Source: an uncultured Candidatus Saccharibacteria bacterium
Lineage (GTDB): Bacteria > Patescibacteriota > Minisyncoccia > UBA6257 > UBA9933
Length of the DNA: 29,488 nucleotides
NCBI GenBank assembly: GCA_964362685.1
Contig: CAYIFL010000001.1
Coordinates: 1 to 29,488 of the forward strand
Reading direction: 5' to 3'
The position numbers were made by a program, and so were the translations under genes. Below the pieces are notes generated by a model, which searched no databases, had not been told where the DNA came from, and worked only from the letters and a program-made list of their open reading frames with translations. Below, one piece after another: positions 3,092 through 20,275 of the stretch; the first letter of the stretch is position 1, and every line of letters starts with the position of its first letter.

Positions 3092-3108
3092 AATGCCAAA
3101 GTAATGAC

Positions 3109-4005
3109 TTAGTGCTCTTTCTTTTGTTCTGCCCCGGGCTGATTCACTAAATAGGGATAGGATTCTTTAGTTGCATCGCGGTCCAGGGAAAGAAACGCAT
3201 AATATAAAATTCCACGTGTTTCCATTAAAGCATACTCTGTTTTTCCACCCTCTGGGGTTGATATTGGCAATAATCTTATTTTTGTTCCCTCTGGAAAGGG
3301 TCTATATCTATTAATCATTCGTACTATCCTAGCCAATTGCGGCGCATGAGAAATGATAGCTAATTCATCATGCTCTATATCAAAATTTTCCGGCAAACGA
3401 ACAGACTTCACCTGATCAACACTTTTATCTATACCTTCTCCAATCACCATCACCTTTTCTTGTGGTATGATTATTCCCTCTCGCGTTAAGACATCATGGA
3501 CCACCTCATTTTCATCAGGTCTACCATTATAGATAATGTACGGACCCGACTCTAGGATCGACCTCTTTGTTAATTCTTTTCGTTTTTGAAGAGAACTCAA
3601 TCCTCCTTGATCAAAAACGTCTCCGCTCCGAGCCTCTGTCACCCTTCGCGCAATCCGTGCCGCATAATTTAAACGAGCCCTGTCCATACCTCGCGCCCAC
3701 GGAAAGTTTTTATAACGATCTTCCTTGACTGGATCATCATACGTGCCCGGACCAGAAAGAACCCATATGGCTTCAATTTTTTTAGCAACATCATCTGATA
3801 GGTGAAACTCGCGGTAATCGCGCTCGGCAATTTCTTCCAAAAGATCGATTTCACGAAGCACCTCGTCAATTAATTGTTTTATTTCTTCTGGCGGAAATCG
3901 TTTAAATGCTTCATGCTCTTCTACTGCACTTTCGTACACAGCATCAATGCCAAGGCGAGCCTCTTTTTTTATATTGCGTTTCTCTGATTGATTTTCTATG
4001 GACAT
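3109..4005 (-). CDS. Hypothetical protein, divergent DUF218/YdcF-like
   Basis: 298 aa. AIWVLSG...DRARLNYAARI...YIIYNG...DKSVDQV...LAIISHAPQLARIVR follows the motif order of DUF218, with substitutions. Acidic N-terminal extension. Confidence 0.5.
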   Translation of the reverse strand: MSIENQSEKRNIKKEARLGIDAVYESAVEEHEAFKRFPPEEIKQLIDEVLREIDLLEEIAERDYREFHLSDDVAKKIEAIWVLSGPGTYDDPVKEDRYKNFPWARGMDRARLNYAARIARRVTEARSGDVFDQGGLSSLQKRKELTKRSILESGPYIIYNGRPDENEVVHDVLTREGIIIPQEKVMVIGEGIDKSVDQVKSVRLPENFDIEHDELAIISHAPQLARIVRMINRYRPFPEGTKIRLLPISTPEGGKTEYALMETRGILYYAFLSLDRDATKESYPYLVNQPGAEQKKEH

Positions 4006-4021
4006 ACTATATTTTTATTTC

Positions 4022-4879
4022 CTACTTTTGCAGAAACACATCAGCTTCTCGCCACTCACTTTCCAAATATTCCTTCAGCGCCTCCTGCCATGGCCGCATC
4101 GGATATTTTAGAGAAAGCAAACTTTCGTCTCCGCCTGTCGCATCTGGATTAAAAAAGCTGATGTCTACGGGAATCGCATTAGCATTTGATCCCAGCGTTT
4201 TAATTATTTCCTCTGCCATCTCGAGTCGAGAAGCGCTACCGCTATTTACAATATGAAACACCCCAACTGCGCCTTTTCCCAGCAGTGCCTTTATCGCTCC
4301 GACTACATCCTTGCCAAATGTTGGTGAGCCGATTTGATCCGAAGCCGCTCGAATTTCTTTTGTCCCCTCGCGCGAAAGCTGATCAATAATTTTTCTCACG
4401 AATTTTTTATCCCGAGTGGGGCCGCCGCCGAAAATCCAGCTTGTCAGTATAATAAAGTAATCATCAGATATTCCTCTGACTGCAAGCTCCCCCATATGTT
4501 TTGATTTGCCGTAGACACTTTTTGCAAAAGGGGTATCGCTCTCTCTGAAGGGCCCGTTATCTAATCTGTCGAACACCGCATTCGTTGAAACATACACCAT
4601 TTTCGCGCCGGCTTGTTTCGCCGCGCATGCCACATTATACGTTCCAATTGAATTTATAAAATAGGCGCGTTCTGGATTTTCCTCGCACGCTCCCATATCT
4701 GTTTCTGCGGCTAAGTGAAGTATAGCTCGCGGATTAGTATCCGCGACAAACTTTTGAACCGCATCAAAATCCGTTATATCCAAAATCTCTTTGTTTGTCT
4801 TTATACCGAAATCAATATAGGAACCAACCATGCCGCCGGATCCGGTAATAAGAATCTTGTCTAAATTGATTTCTGCCAT
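4022..4879 (-). CDS. rfbD: dTDP-4-dehydrorhamnose reductase-like SDR
   Basis: ILITGSGGMVGS (GxxGxxG), LHLAAETD, YVSTNAVFD, YGKSK (YxxxK), DQIGSPT, PWQEAL. Start placed at MAEINLDK (4879). Confidence 0.85.
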   Translation of the reverse strand: MAEINLDKILITGSGGMVGSYIDFGIKTNKEILDITDFDAVQKFVADTNPRAILHLAAETDMGACEENPERAYFINSIGTYNVACAAKQAGAKMVYVSTNAVFDRLDNGPFRESDTPFAKSVYGKSKHMGELAVRGISDDYFIILTSWIFGGGPTRDKKFVRKIIDQLSREGTKEIRAASDQIGSPTFGKDVVGAIKALLGKGAVGVFHIVNSGSASRLEMAEEIIKTLGSNANAIPVDISFFNPDATGGDESLLSLKYPMRPWQEALKEYLESEWREADVFLQK

Positions 4880-8513: not shown

Positions 8514-9251
8514 TCACTTGTCGAAGGTTACGAGCCCTTGCGCTTCTTTATATCTCTCAGGCGTGCCAATATCAAGAAAATCATCCTCCATTACAAAGCC
8601 ATGGCAATACTCACCTAGTACCGAGGGGAAAAAATGGTATTCAATCGAAAAAGAATCTTCCTGCGGCATATGAGCAAACGCATCTTTCTTCATTACATAT
8701 ACACCTGCATTTACCAGTCCTTCCTCGTTCACGCCATCTTTTTCCCGAAAACTTTGAATCCATCCTTCTGTATCAATCTCTACTCTACCGTATGCTGACG
8801 CATCAGATTTTTTTCCCAGAAGAATAGAAACAAGGGCGTCTTTTTCACGATGAGCTCCATACAAATCACGAAAAGGAGGCGCCATAACCTGATCTCCGTT
8901 CATCACAAAAAAATGATCCGTGCGTATCAAATCTTTTGCTCGCTTAACTGCGCCGCCGGTTCCTAAAGGAATATCTTCTTCTGAAAAAACGATTTCAACA
9001 TTCTCTCTACCAAGAGGTTTGTAATCTCGAAAGTGATCTATCACCTGATTCTTGAGGTAGCCCACGCTTAAAATCATGCGGCGGAATCCATGGCGCGCAA
9101 GCATATCGATTGCGCGTTCAAGGAACGGCCTGCCGCCGACCTCAGCCATCACCTTTGGCCGATCAGAAACAACAGACTGCAGACGGGTTCCTTTCCCGCC
9201 CGCAAGAATCAATACATCGCTTGTATGAAAATCATCAAAAGGGTTCGACAT
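8514..9251 (-). CDS. hddC: D-glycero-alpha-D-manno-heptose 1-phosphate guanylyltransferase-like nucleotidyltransferase
   Basis: ILAGGKGTRLQSVVSDRPKVMAEVGGRPFL, LGTGGA, VMNGD, NAGVY, FLDIGTPERY; adjacent to hddA. Start placed at MSNPF (9251). Confidence 0.82.
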   Translation of the reverse strand: MSNPFDDFHTSDVLILAGGKGTRLQSVVSDRPKVMAEVGGRPFLERAIDMLARHGFRRMILSVGYLKNQVIDHFRDYKPLGRENVEIVFSEEDIPLGTGGAVKRAKDLIRTDHFFVMNGDQVMAPPFRDLYGAHREKDALVSILLGKKSDASAYGRVEIDTEGWIQSFREKDGVNEEGLVNAGVYVMKKDAFAHMPQEDSFSIEYHFFPSVLGEYCHGFVMEDDFLDIGTPERYKEAQGLVTFDK

Positions 9252-9261
9252 ATAGCGGGGA

Positions 9262-10275
9262 CTATGCCTGAATATTTTTTTCTGGCGCATAGTAAACCAC
9301 CTGGCTCCCCAAGTGATCAAATAAAATCGGGACATAAAGGAGATGTTTTAAGCGCTCCTTCACCGCCTTTTGTTTTTCAGGCGCAACAAAGAAAACCATA
9401 AAGCCGCCTGCACCAGCACCCAAGAGTTTGCCGCCCCAGGCACCGGCGCCTCTCGCCGCTTCGTATATCTCATCTATGGCAGAATTGCTGATTTGCGATC
9501 CTAAACTTTTCTTGATCTGCCAGGCTTCGTGGAGCAGACGCCCAAAATCCTCGAATGCGCCTTTATGCACCACCTCTATTGCCTCTTCAACCATATCCCG
9601 CATAATCCGGAGCGCTGATCCCTTTTCATTATCTGCCGTACTCTTCACTTGCTCTGCAGCGATGTCAGAGGCAGTGCGCGTGAGTCCGGTAAAAAACATC
9701 ATAAGATGGCTCTGGAACGCCTCCATGCGCTTGGTCGTAAGAAGCACCGGATGCACCGCAATAAGATGTGGTCCGCCAAATTCGATTTTATTTAGTCCCC
9801 CAAATGCAGCTGCGGCTTGATCCTGCGACCCGACATTCTCTTTGAGGCGTTCCTGCTCAATATGGATTGCATCGAGCATTAAGCGCCGCTTTGTAACCAT
9901 GCGTCCATCCAGGGCATGAAGCGCATGAAGCAAACCCACCGTAAAGGACGAACTTGATCCCAAACCAGAACGCGCCGGCAGATCTCCCTGATGGTGTATT
10001 TCGATGCCTTTTTGCACATTCAAGAATTTCAGAACCTCCCGCACTGCCGGATGCTCTATTTCTTCCTGTTCCTTCACAAGCTCTATTTTAGACCATACCA
10101 CACGATTTTTATGCTCGAAAAAAGGCGGCAAGTGCCTGCAGGTAATATAACAATACTTATTAATAGTCGCTGAAAAAACCGCACCATTCCGATTTTGGTT
10201 TTGATTATACCATGCGGGATAATCAGTGCCGCCGCCGAAAAAAGAAATACGAAAAGGGGTTCGAGTAATAACCAT
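9262..10275 (-). CDS. hddA: D-glycero-alpha-D-manno-heptose 7-phosphate kinase (GHMP kinase)
   Basis: TRTPFRISFFGGGTDYP, DLPARSGLGSSSSF, GSQDQAAAAFGG, GGKLLGAGAGGF. Confidence 0.9.
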   Translation of the reverse strand: MVITRTPFRISFFGGGTDYPAWYNQNQNRNGAVFSATINKYCYITCRHLPPFFEHKNRVVWSKIELVKEQEEIEHPAVREVLKFLNVQKGIEIHHQGDLPARSGLGSSSSFTVGLLHALHALDGRMVTKRRLMLDAIHIEQERLKENVGSQDQAAAAFGGLNKIEFGGPHLIAVHPVLLTTKRMEAFQSHLMMFFTGLTRTASDIAAEQVKSTADNEKGSALRIMRDMVEEAIEVVHKGAFEDFGRLLHEAWQIKKSLGSQISNSAIDEIYEAARGAGAWGGKLLGAGAGGFMVFFVAPEKQKAVKERLKHLLYVPILFDHLGSQVVYYAPEKNIQA

Positions 10276-12107
10276 TAGTGGATATCGGGCATCGCCGGAT
10301 GTTCCCAGTCGGAAACCGGCTCGACGCCTATCATATTTTCTCTGAATTCTTCACGCGGAAGATACGGGTACATATCTTCAATAGGCGTCTTCCATCCGAA
10401 GATGCGCGGATTATACACATGCTCTTCATAACAATTTACCACACATACAACCGGACCTTCCATAGCCAAGACTTTCCGTATACCTTCCCGGACTCCAGCG
10501 TTATTCCCGATCTGAACCGTGGGCATTCCATACGCCTGGCATATTTTTATAAAATCCGGCGGATTGTATCCCTTTGGCCCGCATGCTTCCATTCTGCCTT
10601 GAAAATTAGTCTTTTGATAAGACTTAGTAATGCCGTAGATGCGATTATCGATAATAAAGGTTTTAAATCCGAGATTATAATTCAGCACCGTCTGAATCTC
10701 CTGGATATTCATATTGAATCCGCCGTCGCCGATCGTCGCAACCACATTGTGTTTTTTATCAGAGCCGAGCCAGGCGCCCATAGCGCCAGCAAAAGAAAAT
10801 CCCATGGGCGAATTGCCATTATTCGTGATGTTCCGCTGGCCGCGCTTTGTTTCAAAAGAATGATTTGAGGCAACGATATTGCCGCCGCAATCACCTACCA
10901 AAATATCATTTGGTCCCATCTCTTCGGAAAGAATCCGAAAGAAATAATATGGATGCACATTAGACCTATCCAAGCTGGTGTACTCCGGCAAAACCGGATC
11001 ATATTTTTCTTTCCAGTGCATCACTTTTTTAGTCCATGCGGAAATATCCGGCAAGGACACATTCGCTATTTTATCAAAAAGACGCCGCAGAAAGATTTTC
11101 GCGTCGCAAAATACGTTTTCATCAAAAGGAATCTGCTGGAGTTTTTTCTGGAGGAGTGACGGATCAACGTCAATTACCCATTTTTTGGCGCCGCGCGCGA
11201 ATGTTTGCAAATTGCCGCCGGTGATTCTCCCGGAGATACGGCTGCCTACCGCCAAAAGCAAATCAGCATTTTGAAGGCCGAAATTACGCCCCCTTCCTCC
11301 ATAGGTGCCTACCCTGCCGCCATACCACTGCCAATCCGAGGTTACTGCATCGAGCGCATTCCACGTTGGAAATACCGGCATCTTCAATCGCTCGCCCACT
11401 GCCCATAACTCCTCCATTGCGCCCGCGATCCGCACGCCGCCGCCAATGAGCATCACCGGACGCTTGGCACTCATTAAATCCTGGAGCAATGAATCGATTT
11501 TTCTATCGATATATAAAAAATTATACGTGGCCCTCGCGGCTTCCGCATCAAATCCCGTGAGCTTATCTGGCTCGATTAATTCCTTGGCAATATTTAAGGG
11601 GAGATCAATAAGCACTGGCCCTGGCCTGCCTTCGCGCGCATGAAAAAGCGCCTTCTGCAACTCATATTTAATACTTGCGGCATCTTGAATCATCACCGCG
11701 TACTTAGTGATTGGCTTTACAATACTCACAATATCGGTTTCCTGAAAGCCAACCTGCCGCACTTCAGGATCAGGCCGCAAAAATTGCGAATTGACTTGCC
11801 CCGTAATAAAAAGGCACGGCACAGAGTCATAATAGCAATTGCCGATAGGAGTGACCATATTCATGCCTCCGGGACCGCTTGTTGCAATAGTTACGCCGGG
11901 CTTGCCGCTTATTTTTGCGTAACACTCCGCGGCAAAACCCCCTCCCTGCTCGTGCATGACCGCGACATAGCGCGTTTTATCGGTTTTCGTAAACGCGTCA
12001 ATAAGATCGCCGATCGCGGAACCATACACCACAAACATATCCGTAATGCCCAAATCAGCCAGATACTGAATTATAAAATCTGCCACGCGCATTTTTCCAG
12101 AAGACAT
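10275..12107 (-). CDS. ThDP-dependent acetolactate-synthase-like enzyme (YerE-like sugar C-C ligase candidate)
   Basis: Catalytic HEQ, ATSGPG, FAD-domain ADLLLAVGSR, ThDP motif GDGGFNMNIQE...DNRIYG. TAATG stop/start coupling to hddA. Start placed at MSSGKMRVADF (12107). Confidence 0.88.
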   Translation of the reverse strand: MSSGKMRVADFIIQYLADLGITDMFVVYGSAIGDLIDAFTKTDKTRYVAVMHEQGGGFAAECYAKISGKPGVTIATSGPGGMNMVTPIGNCYYDSVPCLFITGQVNSQFLRPDPEVRQVGFQETDIVSIVKPITKYAVMIQDAASIKYELQKALFHAREGRPGPVLIDLPLNIAKELIEPDKLTGFDAEAARATYNFLYIDRKIDSLLQDLMSAKRPVMLIGGGVRIAGAMEELWAVGERLKMPVFPTWNALDAVTSDWQWYGGRVGTYGGRGRNFGLQNADLLLAVGSRISGRITGGNLQTFARGAKKWVIDVDPSLLQKKLQQIPFDENVFCDAKIFLRRLFDKIANVSLPDISAWTKKVMHWKEKYDPVLPEYTSLDRSNVHPYYFFRILSEEMGPNDILVGDCGGNIVASNHSFETKRGQRNITNNGNSPMGFSFAGAMGAWLGSDKKHNVVATIGDGGFNMNIQEIQTVLNYNLGFKTFIIDNRIYGITKSYQKTNFQGRMEACGPKGYNPPDFIKICQAYGMPTVQIGNNAGVREGIRKVLAMEGPVVCVVNCYEEHVYNPRIFGWKTPIEDMYPYLPREEFRENMIGVEPVSDWEHPAMPDIH

Positions 12108-12116
12108 AGCAACTAT

Positions 12117-12145
12117 AATGTATGCCCGATTGAGTAGTGTGTCAA
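12117..12145 (-). promoter_or_regulatory. sigma70-type promoter of ThDP-hddA-hddC-GT4-rml operon
   Basis: TTGACA-17 nt-TACATT, ending 9 nt before ATG 12107. Confidence 0.65.
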
Positions 12146-12160
12146 CAGGGAAGGATTTGT

Positions 12161-12742
12161 TTAGTTCTTCTTGGTAACTTTTACCTCGAGTCCTAAATGC
12201 GGCAATGCGCGCAAAAGCGTAAGGCACGCGTCCCACTGGTCTGATTCGCCTTTAAGCATATAGGCAATCCATTCATCAAGCGGCATTTCTAAAAGCTCCA
12301 TTTGCTCGCTTGGGTCTAGTTTCGGCTCTCCTACTTTTTTACAACCGGTTGCAAGAAAACTATAAAACTTGGTGGTTGAATTTCTTGAGTTAATAAATCC
12401 TGATCCTAAACTAATCACTTCTTTTGGGTCATAGCCGGTTTCTTCTTTTAATTCCCGCTTGATAATTTCTTCGGGCAATTCACCTTTGAAGCTGCCTTGG
12501 CCCCCGGGCGTTTCAATCATAATCTGGCCTGATCCCTGTTTGTATTGGCGAATTAAAATAACTTTGCCGTCTTCGGTAATGGGCAAAACCGCTGACCACG
12601 ACGGCTGTTCGTTAAAATAGAAGTCGGTTTCCTTGCCGGTGTGATCCCTGAATCGTTGTTTATCTAAACGCTTGCCGTATCCTTCGGCTAGTGTTTCCGG
12701 CTTCCCAATTTTTTCCCAGGGGACAATGCTCATATCGTCCAT
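12161..12742 (-). CDS. Nudix hydrolase A (ADP-ribose/NDP-sugar pyrophosphatase-like)
   Basis: VILIRQYK...ETPGG and Nudix box GQGSFKGELPEEIIKRELKEETGY. The true start may be the Met at 12733. Confidence 0.88.
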   Translation of the reverse strand: MDDMSIVPWEKIGKPETLAEGYGKRLDKQRFRDHTGKETDFYFNEQPSWSAVLPITEDGKVILIRQYKQGSGQIMIETPGGQGSFKGELPEEIIKRELKEETGYDPKEVISLGSGFINSRNSTTKFYSFLATGCKKVGEPKLDPSEQMELLEMPLDEWIAYMLKGESDQWDACLTLLRALPHLGLEVKVTKKN

Positions 12743-12776
12743 AGTATTTGAAATTAAAAAGATTTCAAGCTAATGT
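12741..12776. promoter_or_regulatory. Overlapping divergent promoters sharing a palindrome
   Basis: Plus strand TTGAAA(12748)-17-TAATGT(12771); minus strand TTGAAA(12768)-16-TACTAT(12746). The two -35 boxes are the arms of TTGAAAT-N7-ATTTCAA. Confidence 0.5.
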
Positions 12777-12789
12777 AGTAACACTATCT

Positions 12790-13290
12790 ATGACACACAT
12801 TACCTTTAATGACCTAACAAAACTGCGCGAAGAGTTAAGGGGTAAAACCATTGTGTTTTGCTCTGGTGGTTTTGATTTAACACATGCGGGACACGTCTTA
12901 TTCTTCGAGGACTGTAAAAAGCATGGAGATATCTTAGTTGTTGGCCTTGGTTCTGATGCGGCACGGCGGGGTGAAAAAAAAGATGATGGACGGCCTATTA
13001 TAAACGAAAAGATGCGCCTTAAAATGGTTTCATCTTTGAAACCAGTTGATTATGCTTTTATAATTGAGCATTTAGCGGAAACTCACAAACTTGATCCACT
13101 TAACAAAATTTTTGAAGTCTTACAACCAGATGTATATGTGATAAATGCTGATGCATCACATATCCCATACAGAGAAGACCTTGTAAAAAAATTCGGCGCA
13201 AAACTTATTATTTTAGACCGCTGGTGCCCGCCGGAATACGATGCAATTTCAACAACTAAACTGATTGAAAAAATTAAAAAACTGCCATAA
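12790..13290 (+). CDS. Cytidylyltransferase-like / HldC (RfaE domain II)-like nucleotidyltransferase
   Basis: IVFCSGGFDLTHAGH (HxGH), LVVGLGSD, GRPII, VDYAF, ISTTKLIEKI. Start placed at ATG 12790. Confidence 0.85.
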   Translation: MTHITFNDLTKLREELRGKTIVFCSGGFDLTHAGHVLFFEDCKKHGDILVVGLGSDAARRGEKKDDGRPIINEKMRLKMVSSLKPVDYAFIIEHLAETHKLDPLNKIFEVLQPDVYVINADASHIPYREDLVKKFGAKLIILDRWCPPEYDAISTTKLIEKIKKLP

Positions 13291-13326
13291 AAAAGAGGCG
13301 GTTCCGATAAAATCGGAACGCGCCTC
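13289..13326 (-). terminator. Intrinsic terminator downstream of Nudix B (between convergent genes)
   Basis: gaggcg-gttccgat / atcggaac-(g)-cgcctc 14-bp stem with one bulge, followed by a U6 tract on the minus strand. Confidence 0.8.
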
Positions 13327-13345
13327 ACTCAACAATGTTCGCTGA

Positions 13346-13918
13346 CTAATGCAGCCTTTTGAGGTCGTAGCCCAGATGCGGCAACGCCAGAAGTGTTGTC
13401 GCGATAGACTTTGAGTCAGAAACCTCTCCTTCCCAAATTTTCTGAATCCAATCAGAAATGGATAAGGTCATCCTTTCCAGGATTTCTGTTCTTTTCAACC
13501 GCGGCTCCGCAACTTGACGGCAACCTGTTGCCAAAAAAGGTACGTAGTGATTAACATCCGTTGCTGGATCAAAATACGCCTTAGTGGGACCGACCTGAAA
13601 CAATCGGTCCGCGGTAAAACCCGTCTCATCTCGAAGCTCCTTGATCGCAACCTCCTCGGGCTTATCGACAAGTGTGGGATTCCCGCCAGGGAGTTCGAAG
13701 ATGAACTGGTTAGCGGCAATACGGAATTGCCGAAGAACTATTACCTCATACTCTGGAGTTACAGGAAAGATGATAATAGGTGCTTTCGCGCCGCCCCACA
13801 AAAGGAATTTCTCGACACCGTGAGAAAACTCAAAGCTCCTTCGGAATACCCGCTTTCCCCATTCCTCTATAATGAGTTCATCTTCTCCGACAACTTTCGG
13901 AGCCACTAATTCACTCAT
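13346..13918 (-). CDS. Nudix hydrolase B (variant Nudix box)
   Basis: VIVLRQFR...FELPGG and box GNPTLVDKPEEVAIKELRDETGF. AAGGAGG at 13931-13925 supports the start at 13918; the upstream ORF-track extension crosses a terminator. Confidence 0.85.
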   Translation of the reverse strand: MSELVAPKVVGEDELIIEEWGKRVFRRSFEFSHGVEKFLLWGGAKAPIIIFPVTPEYEVIVLRQFRIAANQFIFELPGGNPTLVDKPEEVAIKELRDETGFTADRLFQVGPTKAYFDPATDVNHYVPFLATGCRQVAEPRLKRTEILERMTLSISDWIQKIWEGEVSDSKSIATTLLALPHLGYDLKRLH

Positions 13919-14001
13919 CATCCGCCTCCTTCGTGCAAAGGTTGAAAAGCCTCTTCCTGGAGCTGCCCCATTCAAACATATCGACGGCTTCATTGTCAAA
14001 C

Positions 14002-14039
14002 AAAAAACGGGGCTTCGACTCCTCCATGCCAAAACCCCG
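14002..14039 (-). terminator. Intrinsic terminator downstream of radical SAM gene
   Basis: cggggttttggc-atggagga-gtcgaagccccg 12-bp stem (G-U pairs) followed by TTTTTT. Confidence 0.75.
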
Positions 14040-14041
14040 CG

Positions 14042-14069
14042 TCGATGTTCAAGGTTCAATACTCAATGT
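14042..14069. repeat. Four degenerate 7-bp units immediately after radical SAM stop
   Basis: tcgatgt tcaaggt tcaatac tcaatgt. Confidence 0.5.
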
Positions 14070-15710
14070 TTATTGGTGCCGCGCGCTCATCGGCACAAGC
14101 CGTGCTTGTTCGCTCTCCGACAGCTCCCAGAAGGTCCGGCCGCCTAGAAGATCGCGCTTGAGCGATTTCTGCAGGTGGTCAATCCAAAGATCGATATTGC
14201 GGATAGCCACCGGACCGAGCTTTGGATCCTTGAGTAACCGTTCTCGGTACTCCGGCCGCTTGTAGTAAGCGGCGTGTGCCCAATCGCGGAACGCGATGAT
14301 CTGCTCAGTAGTCAAAGCGTCGCCATCGTAGTGTGGCTCGCTCTCTTCCAAGTATTGGGCATGCCCCGGCCAGCCTGGACCACCAAGCCGCTCAGGCAAT
14401 GGATATCCCTTTGTCTTGGCTTCTCGGTAGAGTTCTGACCCAGGAAGTGCTTGCGCGCAGTAGAAATTGCCGTAGGTGCCGTTTAGATCGCAGGCAAGCT
14501 TAAAGGTCGCTTCAATGGACTCCACGGTCTCGCCGGGAAGCCCGAAGATATAGTTCAATCCGCCTTCAATACCCGCCTCATGCATTCGCCGAACCACATC
14601 GTAAATGGTGTCTTCGCTAAACTTCTTGGCTTGACGAGACCGAACGGTGCTGTTCGCCGCCTCGATACCAAGCCCAAGCCAGCGGAAACCAGCGCTGCGG
14701 AGTAGATCGAGGTACTGCGGTTTGCAGGTGTCAATCCGGAAATAGCACCAGAAGTTAAAAATATCCCGAGCTTCCGGAAAAAGCTGGGTGAGAAGCTTGG
14801 CGATTTCCAGTGGGTGCGAACCCAACCCGAACATTTCGTCTGGGATCTTAAAAAACCTGACCCCATACGTTCTGTAGAGGTACAGAACCTCTTCCACGAA
14901 GAGCTTCGGCATAAGGTGCCGAAAGCTGTTCACGCCTGGCTTCAGTGCTCCGATCTGTTGCAATACCTGCTCGCCTTCGCGGTAGGGCGGCTGAATATTA
15001 CAGAAGTTACAGTGGAACGGACACCCCTCTGCTGAATAGGGATTGGCGTACGGCTCTGGAAGAATCTGCCCTTGTTCGTCAGTCACCCGATAGAACCGAT
15101 GCCAATGATGCGGCCGATACTTCCGCGGATCCATATACTTCCAGCCAGGAAGCGCTGGCTCTTGATTGAGGTCGATGAGCGGCGCTTCAGGACCATGCCC
15201 GATGCCGCTGTTATCCCGGTACCACAAGGACCGCACCTTATGGATATCTACCGGTCGTCCCCCTGCCTTCGTTGCCGCAAGGAGATCCTCCACGGTAATG
15301 GGCCCCTCGCCACCGCAGACGAAATCCACGGCTGGCTCGGTCTCGAGAGTATAAGCAGGAATCGCCGAGGGGTGTGTACCCGTGAGTATGATTGGGATTT
15401 CAGGCGACATCGCCTTGATCGCTTCGGCGAACTCCCGCGCAGATGGCATAGTCTGCGTGCTTGCCGAAGGGTTGTACCCGTAAACCGGCAAAACCACGAG
15501 GCGGGGATGTGCCGCACACACTTCTTCTGCCATCCGTTGTGGCGTCCAGTCCAGGACATTCGCATCAAAAAGATCCATACTCCACTTGCGGCGTTCGCCG
15601 TAAGCGAGCATGAAACGCGCCTTAGCAGGCGGCTCAATTGCATCTGGCACCCCGCCTCTAATATCAAGTACGTTCATCGGAATAACGAAAAGCACGTCCA
15701 ATCGGCTCAT
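14070..15710 (-). CDS. Cobalamin-binding radical SAM protein (class B methyltransferase-like)
   Basis: N-terminal B12-binding-like region (ILTGTHPS...DFVCGGEG), CPFHCNFC (CxxxCxxC), IPDEMF, GIEAAN, YIFGLPGET. SD AAGGAG 5 nt upstream. Confidence 0.9.
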   Translation of the reverse strand: MSRLDVLFVIPMNVLDIRGGVPDAIEPPAKARFMLAYGERRKWSMDLFDANVLDWTPQRMAEEVCAAHPRLVVLPVYGYNPSASTQTMPSAREFAEAIKAMSPEIPIILTGTHPSAIPAYTLETEPAVDFVCGGEGPITVEDLLAATKAGGRPVDIHKVRSLWYRDNSGIGHGPEAPLIDLNQEPALPGWKYMDPRKYRPHHWHRFYRVTDEQGQILPEPYANPYSAEGCPFHCNFCNIQPPYREGEQVLQQIGALKPGVNSFRHLMPKLFVEEVLYLYRTYGVRFFKIPDEMFGLGSHPLEIAKLLTQLFPEARDIFNFWCYFRIDTCKPQYLDLLRSAGFRWLGLGIEAANSTVRSRQAKKFSEDTIYDVVRRMHEAGIEGGLNYIFGLPGETVESIEATFKLACDLNGTYGNFYCAQALPGSELYREAKTKGYPLPERLGGPGWPGHAQYLEESEPHYDGDALTTEQIIAFRDWAHAAYYKRPEYRERLLKDPKLGPVAIRNIDLWIDHLQKSLKRDLLGGRTFWELSESEQARLVPMSARHQ

Positions 15711-15801
15711 GACTTCTCCTTTGCCCTACAGCGATTCAGCGGCTTGTACCGCTTACGATTTAGTTATGCGTTATAGAAAGTTGTCAAAGCAAGCTACAGC
15801 A

Positions 15802-15830
15802 ATTGTATGCGCTAGAAACAAAATCGTCAA
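15802..15830 (-). promoter_or_regulatory. sigma70-type promoter of radical SAM gene
   Basis: TTGACG-17 nt-TACAAT, giving a leader of about 85 nt. Confidence 0.7.
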
Positions 15831-15831
15831 A

Positions 15832-16788
15832 TTATGAGATGGGAGTTTTATCTTCCGGGCTAACCTTGATTGGGGCAAAATCAACCGGCATTCTTTTTTC
15901 CACCGCTTCTCGATTCATATTTTTTATATACCCCACAAATTCACAATTAATACTTGCCACTAAGCTTCCCATCTCTACGGCATCAAGAAATGATCCTCCC
16001 TCATGCCGTTTTACCAAATACCCCGCAGCAAAGGCATCGCCAGCGCCGGTGGTATCTACGGCCATACAAGGAATCACAGGAAAAAGCAAATACTCATATA
16101 ATGGCGTGAGATGGGCTACTAAAACTCCCCGGCTCCCTAGAGTAATTATTACCTGTCCGGCGCCTGCATCTAAAATCTTTTTTGCACAATCTACAACATC
16201 GGAAATATTCACTAATTTTTTTTGAAAAAGAACCTCGCACTCGTTTTGATCCATTTGCACGATATCGGCATACTTTAAATAGGTTGCCCAATCCGGCCAT
16301 CCGCGGTTATACATCTTGCCCCCTTTGTCCGCGCCAAATGGCTTCCGGTGTACATCCACATACACAAGCGCTTTGCTATTTTGCTTTACTTTTATAATTG
16401 CCTCTGGGTCAATATCATCAATATTTCCAAAATTAAATATGACAATATCCACATCGTGGATAAAAGGTTCAATATGCTCGTACGTGGTTGGCTCCATTTG
16501 AACTTTTCTTGTTACAAAATGTTTATTCCCTTCGTGATGATCAGTACCTGCTGGATTTATAAATATGCCACTGGTATTTACAAATGGATAATTCTTTCGA
16601 TAAAATTCTTTTACTTCATCTATATCCTCTTTACCAACACTGCCAACAAAATAGATTTTTGAATCATTGGTAAATAAAGCAGCAAAAGGTGCGATTGCGC
16701 TTTCAGTCATTCCGCCCCAGCCGCTATAGGTTCCTGCATCAGAATGCACGGTGTGGCGGAGCATAGATCCTACTAAACAAATCTTCAT
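15832..16788 (-). CDS. PfkB/ribokinase-family carbohydrate kinase
   Basis: VYVDVH, VIITLGSRG, AVDTTGAGDAFAAGY (PfkB signature 2). Confidence 0.9.
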   Translation of the reverse strand: MKICLVGSMLRHTVHSDAGTYSGWGGMTESAIAPFAALFTNDSKIYFVGSVGKEDIDEVKEFYRKNYPFVNTSGIFINPAGTDHHEGNKHFVTRKVQMEPTTYEHIEPFIHDVDIVIFNFGNIDDIDPEAIIKVKQNSKALVYVDVHRKPFGADKGGKMYNRGWPDWATYLKYADIVQMDQNECEVLFQKKLVNISDVVDCAKKILDAGAGQVIITLGSRGVLVAHLTPLYEYLLFPVIPCMAVDTTGAGDAFAAGYLVKRHEGGSFLDAVEMGSLVASINCEFVGYIKNMNREAVEKRMPVDFAPIKVSPEDKTPIS

Positions 16789-16795
16789 TGTTCAA

Positions 16796-16825
16796 AAAGT
16801 ACCATAGATATTCTATTCCCGTCAA
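16796..16825 (-). promoter_or_regulatory. sigma70-type promoter (extended -10) of pfkB-like gene
   Basis: TTGACG-18 nt-TACTTT, with TGG directly before the -10; ATG 7 nt later. Confidence 0.6.
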
Positions 16826-16833
16826 TTGCCAAT

Positions 16834-16871
16834 AAAAAAAGAGGACCGAGCGAGTGGTTCGCCCGATCCTC
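16834..16871 (-). terminator. Intrinsic terminator downstream of IMPase B
   Basis: gaggatcgggcga-accac-tcgctcggtcctc 13-bp stem followed by T7. Confidence 0.85.
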
Positions 16872-16889
16872 CGCAAGGTTCAGCTCTCG

Positions 16890-17687
16890 CTAGGAGCCGC
16901 AGATACTCATGAGCTCCACCCAGATCTCTCGGTTCCTTGCGAGGATAACCGGGATCTTTTTCTGTTTATACTCAACAGTGCTTCCATCCCAACGAGAAAC
17001 CATACAGCCAGCCTCTAAGGCAAGCAGCTCAGCCGCACCAAGGTCAAAGGGCGTCGCGCCTCCATGTACGTAAGCGCCGATTTTCCCCTCAACCAATAGA
17101 AGCGTGGTCCCGGTAAACGAGTGTACTTCAAGAAGAAAACATCCACGCGATTGCACTTTCTGTGCTATCGCCGGATTTTCTACTGCACCGATACTCACAA
17201 AAAGCTCGTTCGCGAGGTCTCCGCCTCGAGACGTCACTATCCGCTCTCGGTTAATGAAAGCGCCTCTGCCACGTCTTGCGTGCGCGAAAACGCCTCTTGC
17301 CGGAAAGAATATCAAGCCGAGCTCCGGAACACCGTTCAAGGTAAGCCCTGCCGAAATGGAAAAGTAATCCATCCCAGCCGCATATCCGGCAGTACCATCA
17401 ATTGGATCAATGAGCCACTCGTAGCCAGAACTGGAACGCTCTTCTGCGCCTTCTTCGCCGCGGATGCCATGATCCGGCCAGTGCGTCCGAAGACACTGAT
17501 GTATGCGCTCTTCGATTAACGTATCAGCTCTTGTGACGAGATCTTTTGCTCCTGATTTGATAAATCCCTTGAGCGACTGTTCCATCCTGCCGGACTGGCG
17601 AATAGCCAGTGCTTCCCTGCCAAGTTTTGAGAAAAGATCGCCAAGCACCTCAAGCGCCTCACCTGAGCCAAAGCCTTTCGTTGCCAT
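16890..17687 (-). CDS. Inositol monophosphatase-family phosphatase B
   Basis: DLVTRAD, GEE, WLIDPIDGT, PFDLGAA...EAG. GGAGG 7 nt upstream of ATG 17687 (MATKG). Confidence 0.88.
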   Translation of the reverse strand: MATKGFGSGEALEVLGDLFSKLGREALAIRQSGRMEQSLKGFIKSGAKDLVTRADTLIEERIHQCLRTHWPDHGIRGEEGAEERSSSGYEWLIDPIDGTAGYAAGMDYFSISAGLTLNGVPELGLIFFPARGVFAHARRGRGAFINRERIVTSRGGDLANELFVSIGAVENPAIAQKVQSRGCFLLEVHSFTGTTLLLVEGKIGAYVHGGATPFDLGAAELLALEAGCMVSRWDGSTVEYKQKKIPVILARNREIWVELMSICGS

Positions 17688-17764
17688 CTCCCATCCTCCC
17701 TGCGTGTGTACCAACGCGTAATTGCATTGGTAACCAACCACTCATGTCAAAAAGTCCAGCCCGT

Positions 17765-17792
17765 AGCTTACCACAGATTTCTTAATTTGCAA
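17765..17792 (-). promoter_or_regulatory. Putative promoter of IMPase B
   Basis: TTGCAA-16 nt-TAAGCT, with TGG before the -10. Confidence 0.5.
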
Positions 17793-17804
17793 GGATAATT
17801 TTTC

Positions 17805-18593
17805 TTAAATCATTTGTTGAATCTCATCTGCTATGTCTTTATTCCTTGCAAGTATAGCGGGGATTCTCTTCTGTTTAAAATCAATCCGCCCACCATCTGT
17901 TTGAAAAACCGCGCATCCAGCCTCCTCCGCAATTAACACTGCGGCGCCTAAATCAAAAGGAGACGCGCCGCCATGCAAATAAAAACCTATTTTACCCTGA
18001 ATGAGCAAGAGCGTGCTTCCAGTAAAGGAGTGAATCTCTAAAATCATACAACCCAACGAACGAACTTTTTCGGCTATTTCTGGCTTTGTAATAGAATCTA
18101 CGCTTACAAATAACTCGTCCGCAATGCGGCCGCCTTGGGGCACTACAATTTTTTCTCCGTTTATAAAAGCACCCTTGCCGCGGCTCGCATGCGCAAAAAT
18201 ATCATTCGCAGGAAAGTAGAGTGCGCCGAACTCCGGAATGCCGTTTTTAATAAGTCCGACTGAAATCGAGAATAAATCCATTCCGGCTGCAAAACGATGG
18301 GTTGCGTCTATTGGATCGAAAAGCCACTCGTATCCTGAAGAAGATTGCACTTCCGCGCCTTCTTCTCCACGAATGCCGTGCTCGGGCCAATGAGTCCTCA
18401 CGCATTCAGTTAAAAATTTCTCTGAAAATAGATCTGCTTTAGTTACTATTTCCTTTACAGCTGATTTTTTGATAGTGGGATCTAATCTTCCCTCCTCGCG
18501 CATTGTAAGTATCTCTCTGCCTATGTTAGGCAGAAGATCCTTAAAAATTTCAAGGGCTTGTTCATGGTTAAAATTTTTTCTAGATTCATCCAT
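17805..18593 (-). CDS. Inositol monophosphatase-family phosphatase A
   Basis: EIVTKAD, GEE, WLFDPIDAT, PFDLGAA...EEAG; colinear with IMPase B over its whole length. Confidence 0.88.
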   Translation of the reverse strand: MDESRKNFNHEQALEIFKDLLPNIGREILTMREEGRLDPTIKKSAVKEIVTKADLFSEKFLTECVRTHWPEHGIRGEEGAEVQSSSGYEWLFDPIDATHRFAAGMDLFSISVGLIKNGIPEFGALYFPANDIFAHASRGKGAFINGEKIVVPQGGRIADELFVSVDSITKPEIAEKVRSLGCMILEIHSFTGSTLLLIQGKIGFYLHGGASPFDLGAAVLIAEEAGCAVFQTDGGRIDFKQKRIPAILARNKDIADEIQQMI

Positions 18594-18595
18594 AG

Positions 18596-19780
18596 TTACA
18601 GTTTTAAAACTGCTTGCTTTATGCTTTTCAATGCTTTCCCAATATTCTCAATCGAGTTCGCATACGAGAATCTTAAATACCCTTCGCCGTAACTGCCGAA
18701 TGCAATGCCGGGCAAAACCGCAACTCCTGCTTTTTCCAGAATATAGTCAGCCATTTTTTTTGAGGTTATGCCAAATGATTTAATATTCGGAAAAACATAA
18801 AAAGCCCCTTTGGGCACTTGGCACGTTATTCCGGGAATTTCATTCAAACCCTTCACGATAAAATTCCGTCTTTTTTCAAATTCTTTTACCATACTTGAAA
18901 CCTCCTTTTGAGAACCATTTAGGGCCTCGATGCCTGCCCATTGCACAAAAGTTGTGGTACACGCTATAGAATTTACAAGCAGATTTTCTATGTGAGGCAT
19001 AAACCGCTCGGGCATTATAAAATATCCCAGGCGCCAACCAGTCATCGCATAGGTTTTTGAAAATCCATCAATCAAAATAGTCCGCTCTTTTACCCCTGGC
19101 AAACTATAAAAACTATGAAAGGGCAAATTATCGTAAATAATTCTTGAATAAATTTCATCACTTATAACCCAGGCATTTGTTTTTTTGATAAGCTTCGCGA
19201 TCATGGCTAAATCCTCTTTGGGCAATACCCCGCCCGTAGGATTACTCGGAGAATTTAAAATAATTAACTTTGTTTTTTTCGTTATTGCCTTTTTAAATGC
19301 ATACAAATCAAAACTAAAATGATTTTCTTCTAAAATCGGCACAGGCTTTGGCGTGCATCCCAAAAAATCAACCATATTTTCATACACCGGAAATCCTGGA
19401 TTAGGAAAAATCACCTCATCACCTTTTTCTAAAATCGCGGTCATGGCAAGATAGATCGCAGTCTTCGCGCTTGGCGTAACCACAACTTCTCCCGGACGCA
19501 CCGAAACGCCGCGTGTTTCTGTAATGTACTCTGCAATCGCTTGCCGCAGCTCTTTTATGCCTAAGGTTGGCGTATATTTGGTTTTTCCTTGCTCGATTGC
19601 CTTAATGCCGCTTTCGCGAATGTGCTCTGGCGTTTGAAAATCCGGCTCGCCGATTTCCAAATGGATTATGTGTTTGCCTTTCCGCTCGAGTTCCTGCGCT
19701 TTTGCTAAAACCGCATACGCTGCCTCGCCTTTCATAACGGCTGTACTGCGCGACAAGCCCGGAAAATGTTTTTTTACCAT
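18596..19780 (-). CDS. PLP-dependent aminotransferase class I/II (aspartate aminotransferase-like)
   Basis: LEIGEPDF, NSPSNPTG, SDEIY, GFSKTYAMTGWRLGY (Schiff-base Lys), YLRFSYA. Confidence 0.93.
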   Translation of the reverse strand: MVKKHFPGLSRSTAVMKGEAAYAVLAKAQELERKGKHIIHLEIGEPDFQTPEHIRESGIKAIEQGKTKYTPTLGIKELRQAIAEYITETRGVSVRPGEVVVTPSAKTAIYLAMTAILEKGDEVIFPNPGFPVYENMVDFLGCTPKPVPILEENHFSFDLYAFKKAITKKTKLIILNSPSNPTGGVLPKEDLAMIAKLIKKTNAWVISDEIYSRIIYDNLPFHSFYSLPGVKERTILIDGFSKTYAMTGWRLGYFIMPERFMPHIENLLVNSIACTTTFVQWAGIEALNGSQKEVSSMVKEFEKRRNFIVKGLNEIPGITCQVPKGAFYVFPNIKSFGITSKKMADYILEKAGVAVLPGIAFGSYGEGYLRFSYANSIENIGKALKSIKQAVLKL

Positions 19781-19878: not shown

Positions 19879-20208
19879 TTAGGGCGTTATCCATGCCTCT
19901 TCAAGGGATATCCCTCTTTCGATTTCCACCTCGTAATCAGCGAGAAGACGCACCCTGTGAGCGCGCTTGAAAAACGGCTTTAAGTTCCTGTGGGTATTGA
20001 ATCCATACTTACCAAAGATGTCCTCCACCCAAAAAGATCTCCCGCAACTTGCGCATCCCACATGTTTTACGAGATAGAAATGCACGTTCATCGGAAAGAA
20101 TCCCGGCATCTGTATAACAGTAGGAATACCGCCGCCACAGTCCGGGCACTTCCCTTCGATATAGATTAAGGAAAATTCCACGAGAGCCTTGGTCTTTAAA
20201 CATTCCAT
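19879..20208 (-). CDS. Hypothetical small Zn-ribbon protein
   Basis: CPDC...CASC pairs; GAGGTG 5 nt upstream of ATG 20208; own promoter and terminator. Confidence 0.7.
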   Translation of the reverse strand: MECLKTKALVEFSLIYIEGKCPDCGGGIPTVIQMPGFFPMNVHFYLVKHVGCASCGRSFWVEDIFGKYGFNTHRNLKPFFKRAHRVRLLADYEVEIERGISLEEAWITP

Positions 20209-20275
20209 CAAAGCACCTCTCTTTTTTACTACGAGTCAGTTGCGCCCTATGCACTTTTCAAGTTTCAAGATTTAT

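Follow-up and report, generated by a model that had tools for sequence, protein, structure and literature searches.

The locus and its genes

The stretch of DNA considered here (29,488 nucleotides, hereafter the window) is an entire contig (C1; CAYIFL010000001.1) from an uncultured Candidatus Saccharibacteria bacterium, whose assembly (GCA_964362685.1, here G000) comprises 515 kb in 65 contigs and is 80% complete. The genome size and the names given to homologous proteins point to the Candidate Phyla Radiation. Nearly all genes of the window lie on the minus strand and form a single glycan-biosynthesis island. We focus on a cassette of ~10 kb within this island (10275-19780), which encodes, from its proximal to its distal end, an aminotransferase, two phosphatases of the inositol monophosphatase fold (IMPaseB and IMPaseA), a PfkB-family kinase, a B12-binding radical S-adenosylmethionine (radical-SAM) enzyme, a Nudix hydrolase (Nudix2), a nucleotidyltransferase resembling HldC, a second Nudix hydrolase (Nudix1) and an acetolactate synthase (ALS)-like thiamine diphosphate (ThDP) enzyme, and which borders on genes resembling hddA and hddC. 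Two routes are known for the activation of heptose, one consisting of HldE and GmhB, the other of HddA, GmhB and HddC. We tentatively propose, with a probability of about 0.35, that the cassette adds a second nucleotide-activation branch for heptose beside HddA/HddC, analogous to HldA/GmhB/HldC. That the genes form an uncharacterised pathway module is well supported, but this is not the demonstration of a new mechanism; full-text searches of the literature returned no description of the gene combination.

Families were called with Pfam and NCBIfam profiles on the open reading frames (ORFs) of the window, and bit scores were compared with the curated equivalog cut-offs. The genes in question are:

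8514-9335, minus strand: HddC-like NTP_transferase (NCBIfam HddC 156 bits, cut-off 300)
9262-10275, minus strand: HddA-like GHMP kinase (NCBIfam HddA 152 bits, cut-off 600)
10275-12236, minus strand: three-domain ThDP enzyme, acetolactate-synthase/YerE-like (Pfam TPP_enzyme_N, M and C); distal end of the cassette
12161-12742, minus strand: Nudix1 (Pfam NUDIX, E 3e-11)
12748-13290, plus strand: HldC-like nucleotidyltransferase (Pfam CTP_transf_like PF01467, E 2e-14)
13346-14059, minus strand: Nudix2 (Pfam NUDIX, E 8e-6)
14070-15710, minus strand: B12-binding radical-SAM enzyme (Pfam B12-binding and Radical_SAM)
15832-16788, minus strand: PfkB-family kinase (Pfam PfkB PF00294, E 3e-24, residues 130-286 only)
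16890-17741, minus strand: IMPaseA (Pfam Inositol_P PF00459, E 8e-39)
17805-18593, minus strand: IMPaseB (Pfam Inositol_P PF00459, E 4e-36)
18596-19780, minus strand: class I/II (aspartate-aminotransferase-like) aminotransferase (Pfam Aminotran_1_2, E 9e-72); proximal end of the cassette
28617-29405, minus strand: glycosyltransferase of the heptosyltransferase family GT9, truncated at the contig end (Pfam Glyco_transf_9, E 1.6e-19)

The six genes to which an earlier note on this stretch had drawn attention (both Nudix hydrolases, both IMPases, PfkB and the HldC-like enzyme) are real: their frames are intact, the catalytic motifs are present and the family matches are far above chance. The radical-SAM gene lies inside the span of that note, where it went unmentioned. 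Within the block the HldC-like gene is the only one on the plus strand, and Nudix1 is divergent from it. Nudix2, the HldC-like gene and IMPaseA probably have shorter reading frames than annotated, with starts near 13921, 12790 and 17687, respectively. Longest-ORF calls also produce overlaps of 74-76 bp between the ThDP enzyme and Nudix1 and between HddC and HddA; since the domain matches begin at residues 41-49, these overlaps are probably not real and the starts lie downstream. The calls of hddA and hddC denote family-level similarity only, their scores being far below the equivalog cut-offs.

Position and origin of the cassette

Seven relatives have the gene order DegT, short-chain dehydrogenase/reductase (SDR), radical-SAM, HddA, HddC, in some of them followed by GT4, RmlB and RmlA. 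In G000 the ~10-kb block takes the place of the single radical-SAM gene, between an SDR/ColD-like pair and hddA-hddC. The earlier note had regarded this as the place where gmhA and gmhB are expected, a view not borne out by the sister genomes, which hold one radical-SAM gene there and carry gmhA and gmhB side by side at another place. The hddA-hddC pair itself represents a conserved GDP-heptose-type branch common to the window and the sister genomes: HddA is 66-71% identical in the latter and is of a type (set ii) with 55-69% identity among its members and ~40% to the HddA of canonical sets.

The radical-SAM enzyme of the window is 53-65% identical to radical-SAM enzymes encoded beside PfkB on metagenomic contigs, as against 38-43% to those of the sister genomes, and the PfkB-linked enzymes form a monophyletic clade (support 100/98) that includes it. 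In nearly every locus a ThDP enzyme of ALS-like, E1-like or transketolase-like type lies beside the radical-SAM gene. That of the window reaches 372 bits on NCBIfam acolac_lg, which is below the cut-off, and is 62-67% identical to enzymes in loci L030 and L031; the aminotransferase shares 52-64% identity with genes next to hddC in L031 and in genome G019. The radical-SAM enzyme forms the hub of the cassette, the module being organised around the radical-SAM/ThDP-enzyme pair.

A search of 400 other genomes of the order yielded no member of the PfkB family, and the HldC-like family was present in three of 400 genomes of the phylum, counts that are too low for co-occurrence statistics. The GC content at third codon positions (GC3) is a mosaic of two groups, one consisting of the HldC-like gene (0.29), PfkB (0.35) and IMPaseB (0.38), the other of Nudix2 (0.49), the ThDP enzyme (0.50), IMPaseA (0.53) and the radical-SAM gene (0.62), in a genome with a GC content of 0.45. 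Because of the absence of the PfkB family from these 400 genomes of the order, the GC3 mosaic and the replacement at the radical-SAM slot, we regard the cassette as a rare, accessory element that was probably acquired horizontally.

The enzymes of the cassette

The HldC-like nucleotidyltransferase finds its best NCBIfam match in rfaE_dom_II (TIGR02199), with 86 bits and hence short of the cut-off of 181.5; TagD gives 27 bits, and no match to a nicotinamide mononucleotide adenylyltransferase (NMNAT)-type family was obtained with NCBIfam. Its best PDB match is 5X9Q (E 1.4e-13), followed by ECT and TagD; 5X9Q is the HldC of B. pseudomallei (PMC7993394). The motifs HAGH (residue 46) and ISTT (near the C-terminus) are both invariant in an alignment of 17 family members. 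With a threshold of 50% identity, the family as a whole comprises over 450 clusters, with names from Yanofskybacteria, Staskawiczbacteria and Nanoarchaeota among them.

The PfkB kinase displays the motifs DTTGAGD and NECE (consensus DTxGAGD and NxxE) and belongs to a family of ~38 clusters at 54-85% identity, after which identity drops to 29%; in the Protein Atlas only generic PfkB clusters were found. Its AlphaFold2 (AF2) model, with a predicted local distance difference test score (pLDDT) of 92, has the ribokinase fold. Ribokinases, 1-phosphofructokinases (1-PFK), inositol kinases and pseudouridine kinases are its fold neighbours with similar scores, and although Foldseek places a myo-inositol kinase on top, the E-values of all top matches are near 1e-17, so that the ranking does not discriminate between them. 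Canonical HldA was not found in G000 or in genome G402. The PfkB kinase is no HldA orthologue but may be functionally analogous to it.

IMPaseA and IMPaseB score 134 and 125 bits, respectively, on PF00459 (cut-off 27) and carry the metal-binding motifs GEEG, DPIDGT and FDLGAA (IMPaseA) and DPIDAT (IMPaseB). HisN is the best NCBIfam match of both, but the scores of 105 and 104 bits stay below its cut-off of 275, and all other equivalogs (SuhB, CysQ, archaeal FBPase/IMPase) score lower. They are paralogues with 57.5% identity, and IMPaseB is separated by 2 bp from the upstream aminotransferase gene. An IMPaseB orthologue with 82% identity occurs in L065/L066 in the same order (aminotransferase, IMPaseB, IMPaseA, PfkB), and the two genes form a lineage-specific pair; only three close homologues of IMPaseB were found. 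L030 and L032 likewise possess two IMPases each, but these come from two other subclades of the IMPase tree, and the two-IMPase state therefore arose at least twice independently. Every IMPase gene of G000, G007 and G402 lies in a heptose-related locus, and G010, G011 and G017 have no IMPase, which argues that IMPases are not housekeeping genes here; the single IMPase of G800 is situated far from the heptose locus.

L066, a near-identical relative of the cassette locus L065, shows a further peculiarity: at 2527-4835 PfkB is followed by a 161-aa ORF without known family and then by a cut-off ORF of 115 aa. In the 1.3 kb that lead up to the contig end, gene calling gave no radical-SAM gene, and the locus may be a natural variant without this enzyme.

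Both Nudix proteins have 2yvm as their best PDB match (Nudix1 with E 2.5e-30 over its full length, Nudix2 with E 9e-16) and fall into the structural class of ADP-ribose/nucleoside diphosphate (NDP)-sugar hydrolases. The Nudix box is intact in Nudix1 and slightly divergent in Nudix2 (KELRDETGF), where the first Glu of the EE pair is replaced by Asp. Within this class, ADP-ribose pyrophosphatases are marked by a Pro 15 residues past the last Gly of the Nudix box, and GDP-mannose-preferring NDP-sugar hydrolases by D-x-K at the N-terminus of the C-terminal helix, ~65 residues past the same Gly (PMC4629899). The Pro is absent from both proteins, which have Asn (Nudix1) and Tyr (Nudix2) at this position. 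Nudix2 reads D-S-K at the second site, and D-[SA]-K is present in all seven Nudix2-type orthologues and in both Nudix proteins of L055; none of the Nudix2-type proteins reaches the NudK equivalog cut-off. Nudix1 instead reads D-x-W, with [DE]-x-W in all five of its orthologues. The two types also keep different company. Each Nudix1-type (ExW) protein found adjoins an HldC-like gene; Nudix2-type genes overlap an IMPase gene by 4 bp in L027 and are adjacent to one in G007 and L030. From these features Nudix2 is a candidate NDP-sugar hydrolase of the NudK/Bd3179 type, and Nudix1 a predicted NDP-X pyrophosphatase of the ADP-ribose/NDP-sugar hydrolase class, in which ExW would define a different class of Nudix proteins.

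Gene partnerships in other loci

The partnerships of the cassette genes were followed through ~15 independent metagenomic contexts. In all informative loci PfkB is accompanied by the HldC-like gene, and the two adjoin each other in seven (L025, L033/38, L034/45, L041, L042, L043 and L044), a pairing that can be likened to the HldE fusion or to split HldE. A phosphatase usually accompanies the two, namely an IMPase (in the window, L025, L030, L032, L033, L034, L035 and L065) and/or a HAD phosphatase (in L033, L041 and L027/L029). The window and L032 each hold two kinases, two IMPases and two nucleotidyltransferases, together with two Nudix genes in the former and one in the latter; L033 and L027 combine two kinases with one IMPase and one HAD phosphatase. 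The HldC-like gene is adjacent, or nearly so, to the radical-SAM gene in L025, L027, L029, L054 and L056. G800 harbours two tandem heptose sets, a canonical one (HddA, GmhA of the type designated B, HddC, GmhB) and one containing the HldC-like gene. The notion that the HldC-like enzyme is the only nucleotidyltransferase of L054-type loci was dropped, as G800 has an NTP_transferase gene immediately beyond the borders of that locus.

Other genes recur in these neighbourhoods. A RidA (Ribonuc_L-PSP) gene, 78-82% identical between loci, is found in five PfkB/HldC-like loci (L025, L032, L041, L042, L045) and is absent from the window; its product may handle an enamine or imine released by the ColD-like pyridoxal phosphate (PLP) enzyme. 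L027, L029, L054 and L055 exhibit a run of genes for a GHMP kinase, HAD_2, DJ-1/PfpI, a cupin-like protein (~250 aa) and a split E1/transketolase, followed by the Nudix/HldC-like pair.

The presence of gmhA and the likely absence of gmhB

The earlier note had set out from the absence of both gmhA and gmhB. In the window no ORF encodes a protein with a SIS or HAD domain according to the Pfam and NCBIfam scan, but only half of the premise extends to the genome. A canonical gmhA is located on contig C8 (2948-3406, minus strand) between NDH2 and cyclophilin genes; it scores 213.2 bits on TIGR00441, above the cut-off of 209.45, and Pfam SIS_2 agrees. The other half stands so far. In the assembled 80% of G000 no GmhB was detected with the NCBIfam models TIGR00213/TIGR01656, with tblastn using the GmhB sequences of relatives, or with a Pfam HAD_2 search, which also yielded no small HAD protein; lineage-specific hidden Markov models (HMMs) run on all six-frame ORFs at maximum sensitivity gave no GmhB and a best E of 0.14. 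In relatives gmhB lies next to gmhA (G007, G017, G035) or is fused to hddC (G019, and also G402), and five of the seven relatives that carry the hddA/hddC cluster possess a HAD GmhB. Because the gmhA and hddC neighbourhoods of G000 are both assembled and gmhB is in neither, its absence from this genome is likely, even though the genome is only 80% complete.

The GmhA proteins themselves fall into two types, with 41-69% identity within and ~27-35% between them (G000 C8 compared with L022, L027, L054, L053 and L064). One type travels with gmhB and the other with HldC-like/radical-SAM loci, while G800 has both. The GmhA of G000 is 44-52% identical to SIS genes inside HldC-type cassette loci and 27-28% to the gmhB-adjacent type of its relatives.

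It had further been held that hddA and hddC need both gmhA and gmhB, a rule that fails across the family. G010 (L018) and G011 (L016), which are 98-99% complete, carry the order DegT-SDR-radical-SAM-HddA-HddC, and no gmhA, gmhB, IMPase or small HAD gene was found in them; their HddA and HddC may act on another sugar or on one that is taken up in free form.

Gene fusions were also encountered among the heptose genes. GmhB::HddC proteins of 425-433 aa are encoded in G019 (L014:12329-13606) and G402 (L053:5465-6766), and an NTP_transferase::GHMP-kinase (HddC::HddA) fusion of 679 aa in L056 (9435-11474), whose contig also encodes a protein bearing the name Nanoarchaeota.

A proposed second branch of heptose activation

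From the observed gene content, motifs, synteny, co-occurrence, clade structure and GmhA we infer the following scheme, in which all substrates, the anomer, the nucleotide and the roles of the IMPases are predictions. The sugar entering the branch would be the one produced by GmhA, whose gene is not linked to the cassette. The PfkB kinase would phosphorylate this sugar as a functional analogue of HldA, and one IMPase-fold enzyme would remove one phosphate as an analogue of GmhB, while the second IMPase would serve the HddA branch. The HldC-like enzyme would then attach a nucleotide other than GDP, and the resulting NDP-heptose would be the substrate of the radical-SAM and ThDP enzymes of the cassette. 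Each of the two NDP-sugar pools would have its own Nudix hydrolase: Nudix2, with its GDP-manno-sugar-type DxK, would act on the product of HddC, and Nudix1 (ExW) on that of the HldC-like enzyme.

Among the explanations considered, this one needs the least new chemistry. Two parallel branches fit the gene counts of the window, where kinases, phosphatases, nucleotidyltransferases and Nudix hydrolases are present in pairs (2+2+2+2), and L032 is similar apart from its single Nudix gene. A second branch also fits the HldE-like pairing of PfkB with the HldC-like enzyme, the tandem sets of G800 and the lack of another phosphatase in the assembled genome. It is further supported by the best PDB match of the HldC-like enzyme, which is a true HldC, and by the GmhA of G000, which is of the cassette-travelling type. 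The replacement at the radical-SAM slot by a PfkB-linked clade, the phosphatases that accompany PfkB and the HldC-like gene, the confinement of IMPases to heptose-related loci in G000, G007 and G402, the repeated origin of the two-IMPase state, the distribution of DxK and ExW over the Nudix proteins and the GC3 grouping speak for it as well.

Several observations weigh against the proposal. The PfkB kinase obtains only 27 bits on rfaE_dom_I (TIGR02198, cut-off 345), less than its ribokinase match at 74 bits; only its C-terminal, ATP-binding half aligns to solved kinases, its N-terminal substrate half being without a characterised match by sequence, and neither HldA nor HldE appears among the 50 PDB and 30 Swiss-Prot fold matches listed for it. 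Its place in the branch is called into question by L054, L055 and L056, in which the HldC-like gene lies next to a GHMP kinase and a HAD gene without PfkB, so that PfkB is not required to feed the HldC-like enzyme; these loci are still close to B12 radical-SAM, ThDP (split E1, transketolase, ALS-like), Nudix, HddA-like GHMP kinase and HAD genes and often to a SIS gene. The phosphatase step is open to similar doubts. L031/L036 hold PfkB, the HldC-like gene, HddA and HddC with no phosphatase within 10 kb, and IMPases coexist with canonical GmhB in G402 (in the same operon as the GmhB::HddC fusion), L033 and L030. We know of no IMPase-fold enzyme that acts on heptose bisphosphate. The lack of gmhA, gmhB, IMPase and small HAD genes in G010 and G011 suggests, moreover, that the HddA-family kinase may not use heptose-7-phosphate at all. 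Finally, the tight coupling of Nudix2 and IMPase genes is better explained by complete stripping of an NDP-sugar than by control of a pool, and the genome is no more than 80% complete.

For the suggestion in the earlier note that IMPases substitute for GmhB, the outcome is mixed. It is plausible by elimination, given that neither GmhB nor a small HAD protein was found in the assembled part of G000 and that the IMPases of G000, G007 and G402 are confined to heptose-related loci. The replacement is not a clean one, however, because IMPases sit beside canonical GmhB in the three cases named above.

Alternative explanations

The tight coupling of Nudix2 with IMPases makes serial re-tagging the main rival, which we consider possible though improbable. 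Nudix2 would cleave a partly tailored GDP-alpha-heptose intermediate from HddA/HddC to heptose-1-phosphate, an IMPase would release the free sugar from the latter, and PfkB and the HldC-like enzyme would rebuild it on another nucleotide, possibly as the other anomer. The radical-SAM/ThDP enzymes or another glycosyltransferase (e.g. GT9) would use the new handle, and Nudix1 would release or recycle it. All enzymes of the module would thus be employed in one line. In keeping with this, every Nudix2-type protein has the DxK of GDP-mannose-preferring NDP-sugar hydrolases, the Nudix2 and IMPase genes overlap or adjoin in L027, G007 and L030, and the gene order of L027 equals that of L054 with three additions, namely PfkB, the IMPase and the Nudix2-type gene. 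Plants offer a parallel in VTC2/VTC4, where an IMPase-family sugar-1-phosphatase acts after NDP-sugar cleavage. The components are nevertheless separable: G402 has PfkB, the HldC-like gene and an IMPase with no Nudix gene nearby, G007 has Nudix2 and an IMPase without PfkB or the HldC-like gene, and L031 has no IMPase. The Nudix box is, in addition, weakened in the Nudix2 of the window, and to our knowledge there is no precedent for a mid-pathway switch of nucleotide or anomer of an NDP-sugar via the free sugar.

Considerably less probable is an ordinary explanation, by which gmhB resides in the 20% of the genome missing from the assembly, the Nudix proteins are pool regulators like Gmm/NudK, and the IMPases act as sedoheptulose-/fructose-bisphosphatase or in NAD(P)/cobamide cofactor housekeeping for the SDR and B12 enzymes. 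Apart from the incompleteness of the assembly, it can draw on the HAD GmhB of five of the seven cluster-carrying relatives, on the occurrence of Nudix genes in GDP-sugar clusters (e.g. gmm of the colanic-acid cluster) and on the remote position of the one IMPase of G800. It is at odds with the assembly of both usual gmhB neighbourhoods without gmhB, with the restriction of IMPases to heptose-related loci in G000, G007 and G402 and their absence from G010, G011 and G017, and with the lack of an NMNAT-type match for the HldC-like enzyme.

The salvage chain put forward in the earlier note is unlikely. It would lead from host-derived ADP-heptose or free heptose through Nudix, IMPase and PfkB to heptose-7-phosphate for HddA and make GmhA unnecessary. 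This motive is lost with the gmhA on C8, whose product is above the curated cut-off and of the cassette-travelling type. Salvage also leaves the invariant pairing of PfkB with the HldC-like enzyme, the pairing of the latter with Nudix1 and the link to the radical-SAM enzyme unexplained, the motif of Nudix2 is of the GDP-mannose and not of the ADP-ribose type, and no transporter is linked to the module. On the other side, both Nudix proteins belong to the ADP-ribose/NDP-sugar hydrolase class, PfkB kinases typically phosphorylate primary hydroxyls, G010 and G011 must obtain their sugar in some way other than through gmhA/gmhB, and a tiny genome is consistent with a dependent lifestyle. One part of the chain has in fact gained from the DxK of Nudix2 and the translational coupling or adjacency of Nudix2-type and IMPase genes in three other loci. 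A further suggestion of the same note was that the module proofreads keto-sugar nucleotides, which is conceivable for the Nudix hydrolases.

Equally doubtful is a nucleotide handle on a substrate other than heptose-1-phosphate, following the logic of Fom1/Fom3/FomD or TagD. PfkB would phosphorylate a polyol, ketose or small alcohol, the HldC-like enzyme would tag it and the B12 radical-SAM enzyme would modify it; a Nudix hydrolase and an IMPase would release the product, or the NDP-X would donate its phospho-substituent to the glycan. The five loci with HldC-like and radical-SAM genes adjacent or nearly so would suit this scheme, as would the top Foldseek match of PfkB to myo-inositol kinase and the cytidylyltransferase-like fold, which also activates glycerol-3-phosphate, phosphoethanolamine and phosphocholine, ECT and TagD being the next PDB matches. 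The Foldseek ranking does not discriminate, though, and the HldC-like enzyme is far nearer to HldC than to TagD (86 versus 27 bits). The loci, moreover, always contain heptose genes of the GmhA and HddA types, no window ORF has a phosphoenolpyruvate (PEP) mutase domain in the Pfam/NCBIfam scan, and no inositol-1-phosphate synthase was found in G000, G402 or G800.

The remaining candidates were rejected: inositol/CDP-inositol metabolism, suggested by the myo-inositol kinase match and the two IMPases, for the uninformative ranking and the synthase not found in these three genomes, and for the futile cycle that a kinase and a phosphatase at one position would form; salvage of NAD or ADP-ribose by NMNAT-like, ADP-ribose pyrophosphatase, ribokinase-like and NADP-phosphatase-like enzymes for the lack of an NMNAT-type match and of the ADP-ribose pyrophosphatase Pro; cobamide salvage for the B12 enzyme because sister genomes have radical-SAM enzymes that do without such genes; and GT9 as the consumer of ADP-heptose because it is present in G000, was not found in G402 and was not seen in other loci.

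Comparison with known systems

The proposed second branch bears most resemblance to the ADP-heptose pathway of E. coli and Burkholderia (GmhA, HldE or split HldA/HldC, GmhB). In both, a PfkB kinase is paired with an enzyme of the cytidylyltransferase fold and joined by a phosphatase and GmhA, and the cassette lies in a heptose glycan locus with GT9. By contrast, the cassette kinase is no orthologue of HldA and has a novel N-terminal half, the nucleotidyltransferase does not reach the score of the equivalog, the IMPase fold stands in for the HAD fold in the phosphatase, and the cassette possesses two extra Nudix hydrolases and a link to B12 radical-SAM and ThDP enzymes. The GDP-D-glycero-alpha-D-manno-heptose pathway of Aneurinibacillus and Campylobacter (GmhA, HddA, GmhB, HddC) is reflected in the sister-conserved HddA-like and HddC-like genes that flank the cassette and in the GmhB::HddC fusions of G019 and G402. 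It differs in that HddA and HddC of the window are far below the equivalog cut-offs, that no HAD GmhB was found in G000 and that G010 and G011 lack gmhA and gmhB.

For single steps, counterparts exist in other pathways. Nudix2-type proteins share their fold class, the D-x-K and a position inside a GDP-manno-sugar locus with NudK/YffH of E. coli, Bd3179 of Bdellovibrio and Gmm/WcaH of the colanic-acid cluster; in this comparison, which is one of sequences, they differ in staying below the NudK cut-off and in being coupled to IMPases, and Nudix1 differs in its D-x-W and its pairing with the HldC-like enzyme. Plant VTC2/VTC4 (GDP-L-galactose to L-galactose-1-phosphate to L-galactose) likewise combine the cleavage of an NDP-sugar with an IMPase-family sugar-1-phosphatase and illustrate that the IMPase fold can act on an anomeric sugar phosphate, but the cleaving enzyme is a HIT-family phosphorylase instead of a Nudix protein, the sugar is another and the pathway leads to ascorbate. 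Fom1/Fom3/FomD of fosfomycin synthesis unite a handle attached by a cytidylyltransferase-fold enzyme, modification by a cobalamin radical-SAM enzyme and removal by a hydrolase. The resemblance of the cassette to them is one of gene adjacency only; it has no PEP mutase or phosphonate chemistry, its hydrolase would be a Nudix protein and not DUF402, and its context is heptose.

That non-homologous phosphatase folds, HAD and IMPase among them, can fill one pathway step is described for histidinol-phosphate phosphatase (PMC9798254). Its two forms, HisB-N (HAD) and HisN (IMPase), are pertinent here in that both IMPases of the window score best on HisN, yet they do so well below its cut-off and without a histidine-pathway context.

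The cassette suggests a third gene solution to heptose activation, consisting of a non-orthologous PfkB kinase, IMPase-fold phosphatases, a widespread HldC-like family and cobalamin radical-SAM and ThDP enzymes. Genes of this kind occur in tiny-genome bacteria and DPANN-type archaea, in which surface glycans have hardly been characterised. Should the proposal be correct, functions could be assigned to a new Nudix class (ExW) and to the over 450 clusters of proteins now called 'cytidyltransferase-like', the displacement of HAD by IMPase phosphatases would have another case, and new C-branched or C-methylated heptoses would be indicated. Independently of it, hddA and hddC without gmhA or gmhB in this lineage render automatic pathway calls questionable.

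Further features of the window and related loci

The low-coordinate part of the window encodes a glycosyltransferase and methyltransferases, a set resembling rmlB/rmlA/rmlD with a sugar C-methyltransferase, and a GT4 glycosyltransferase. The high-coordinate part beyond the cassette comprises a small Cys-rich ORF, an SDR, a DegT-family protein, GT2 glycosyltransferases, membrane proteins and the truncated GT9, which scores 84 bits in the genome search of G000; no GT9 was found in G402. The Cys-rich ORF (19879-20211, minus strand; 110 aa), situated between the aminotransferase and the SDR, contains two Cys pairs (CPDC ... CASC) in a zinc-ribbon-like arrangement and has no family match. Outside the window, a large ORF on the metagenomic contig of L042 (17782-20948), a few kb downstream of the HldC-like, PfkB and radical-SAM genes, combines SpvB, TcdB-middle and RHS-repeat domains in a Tc/Rhs-type toxin architecture.

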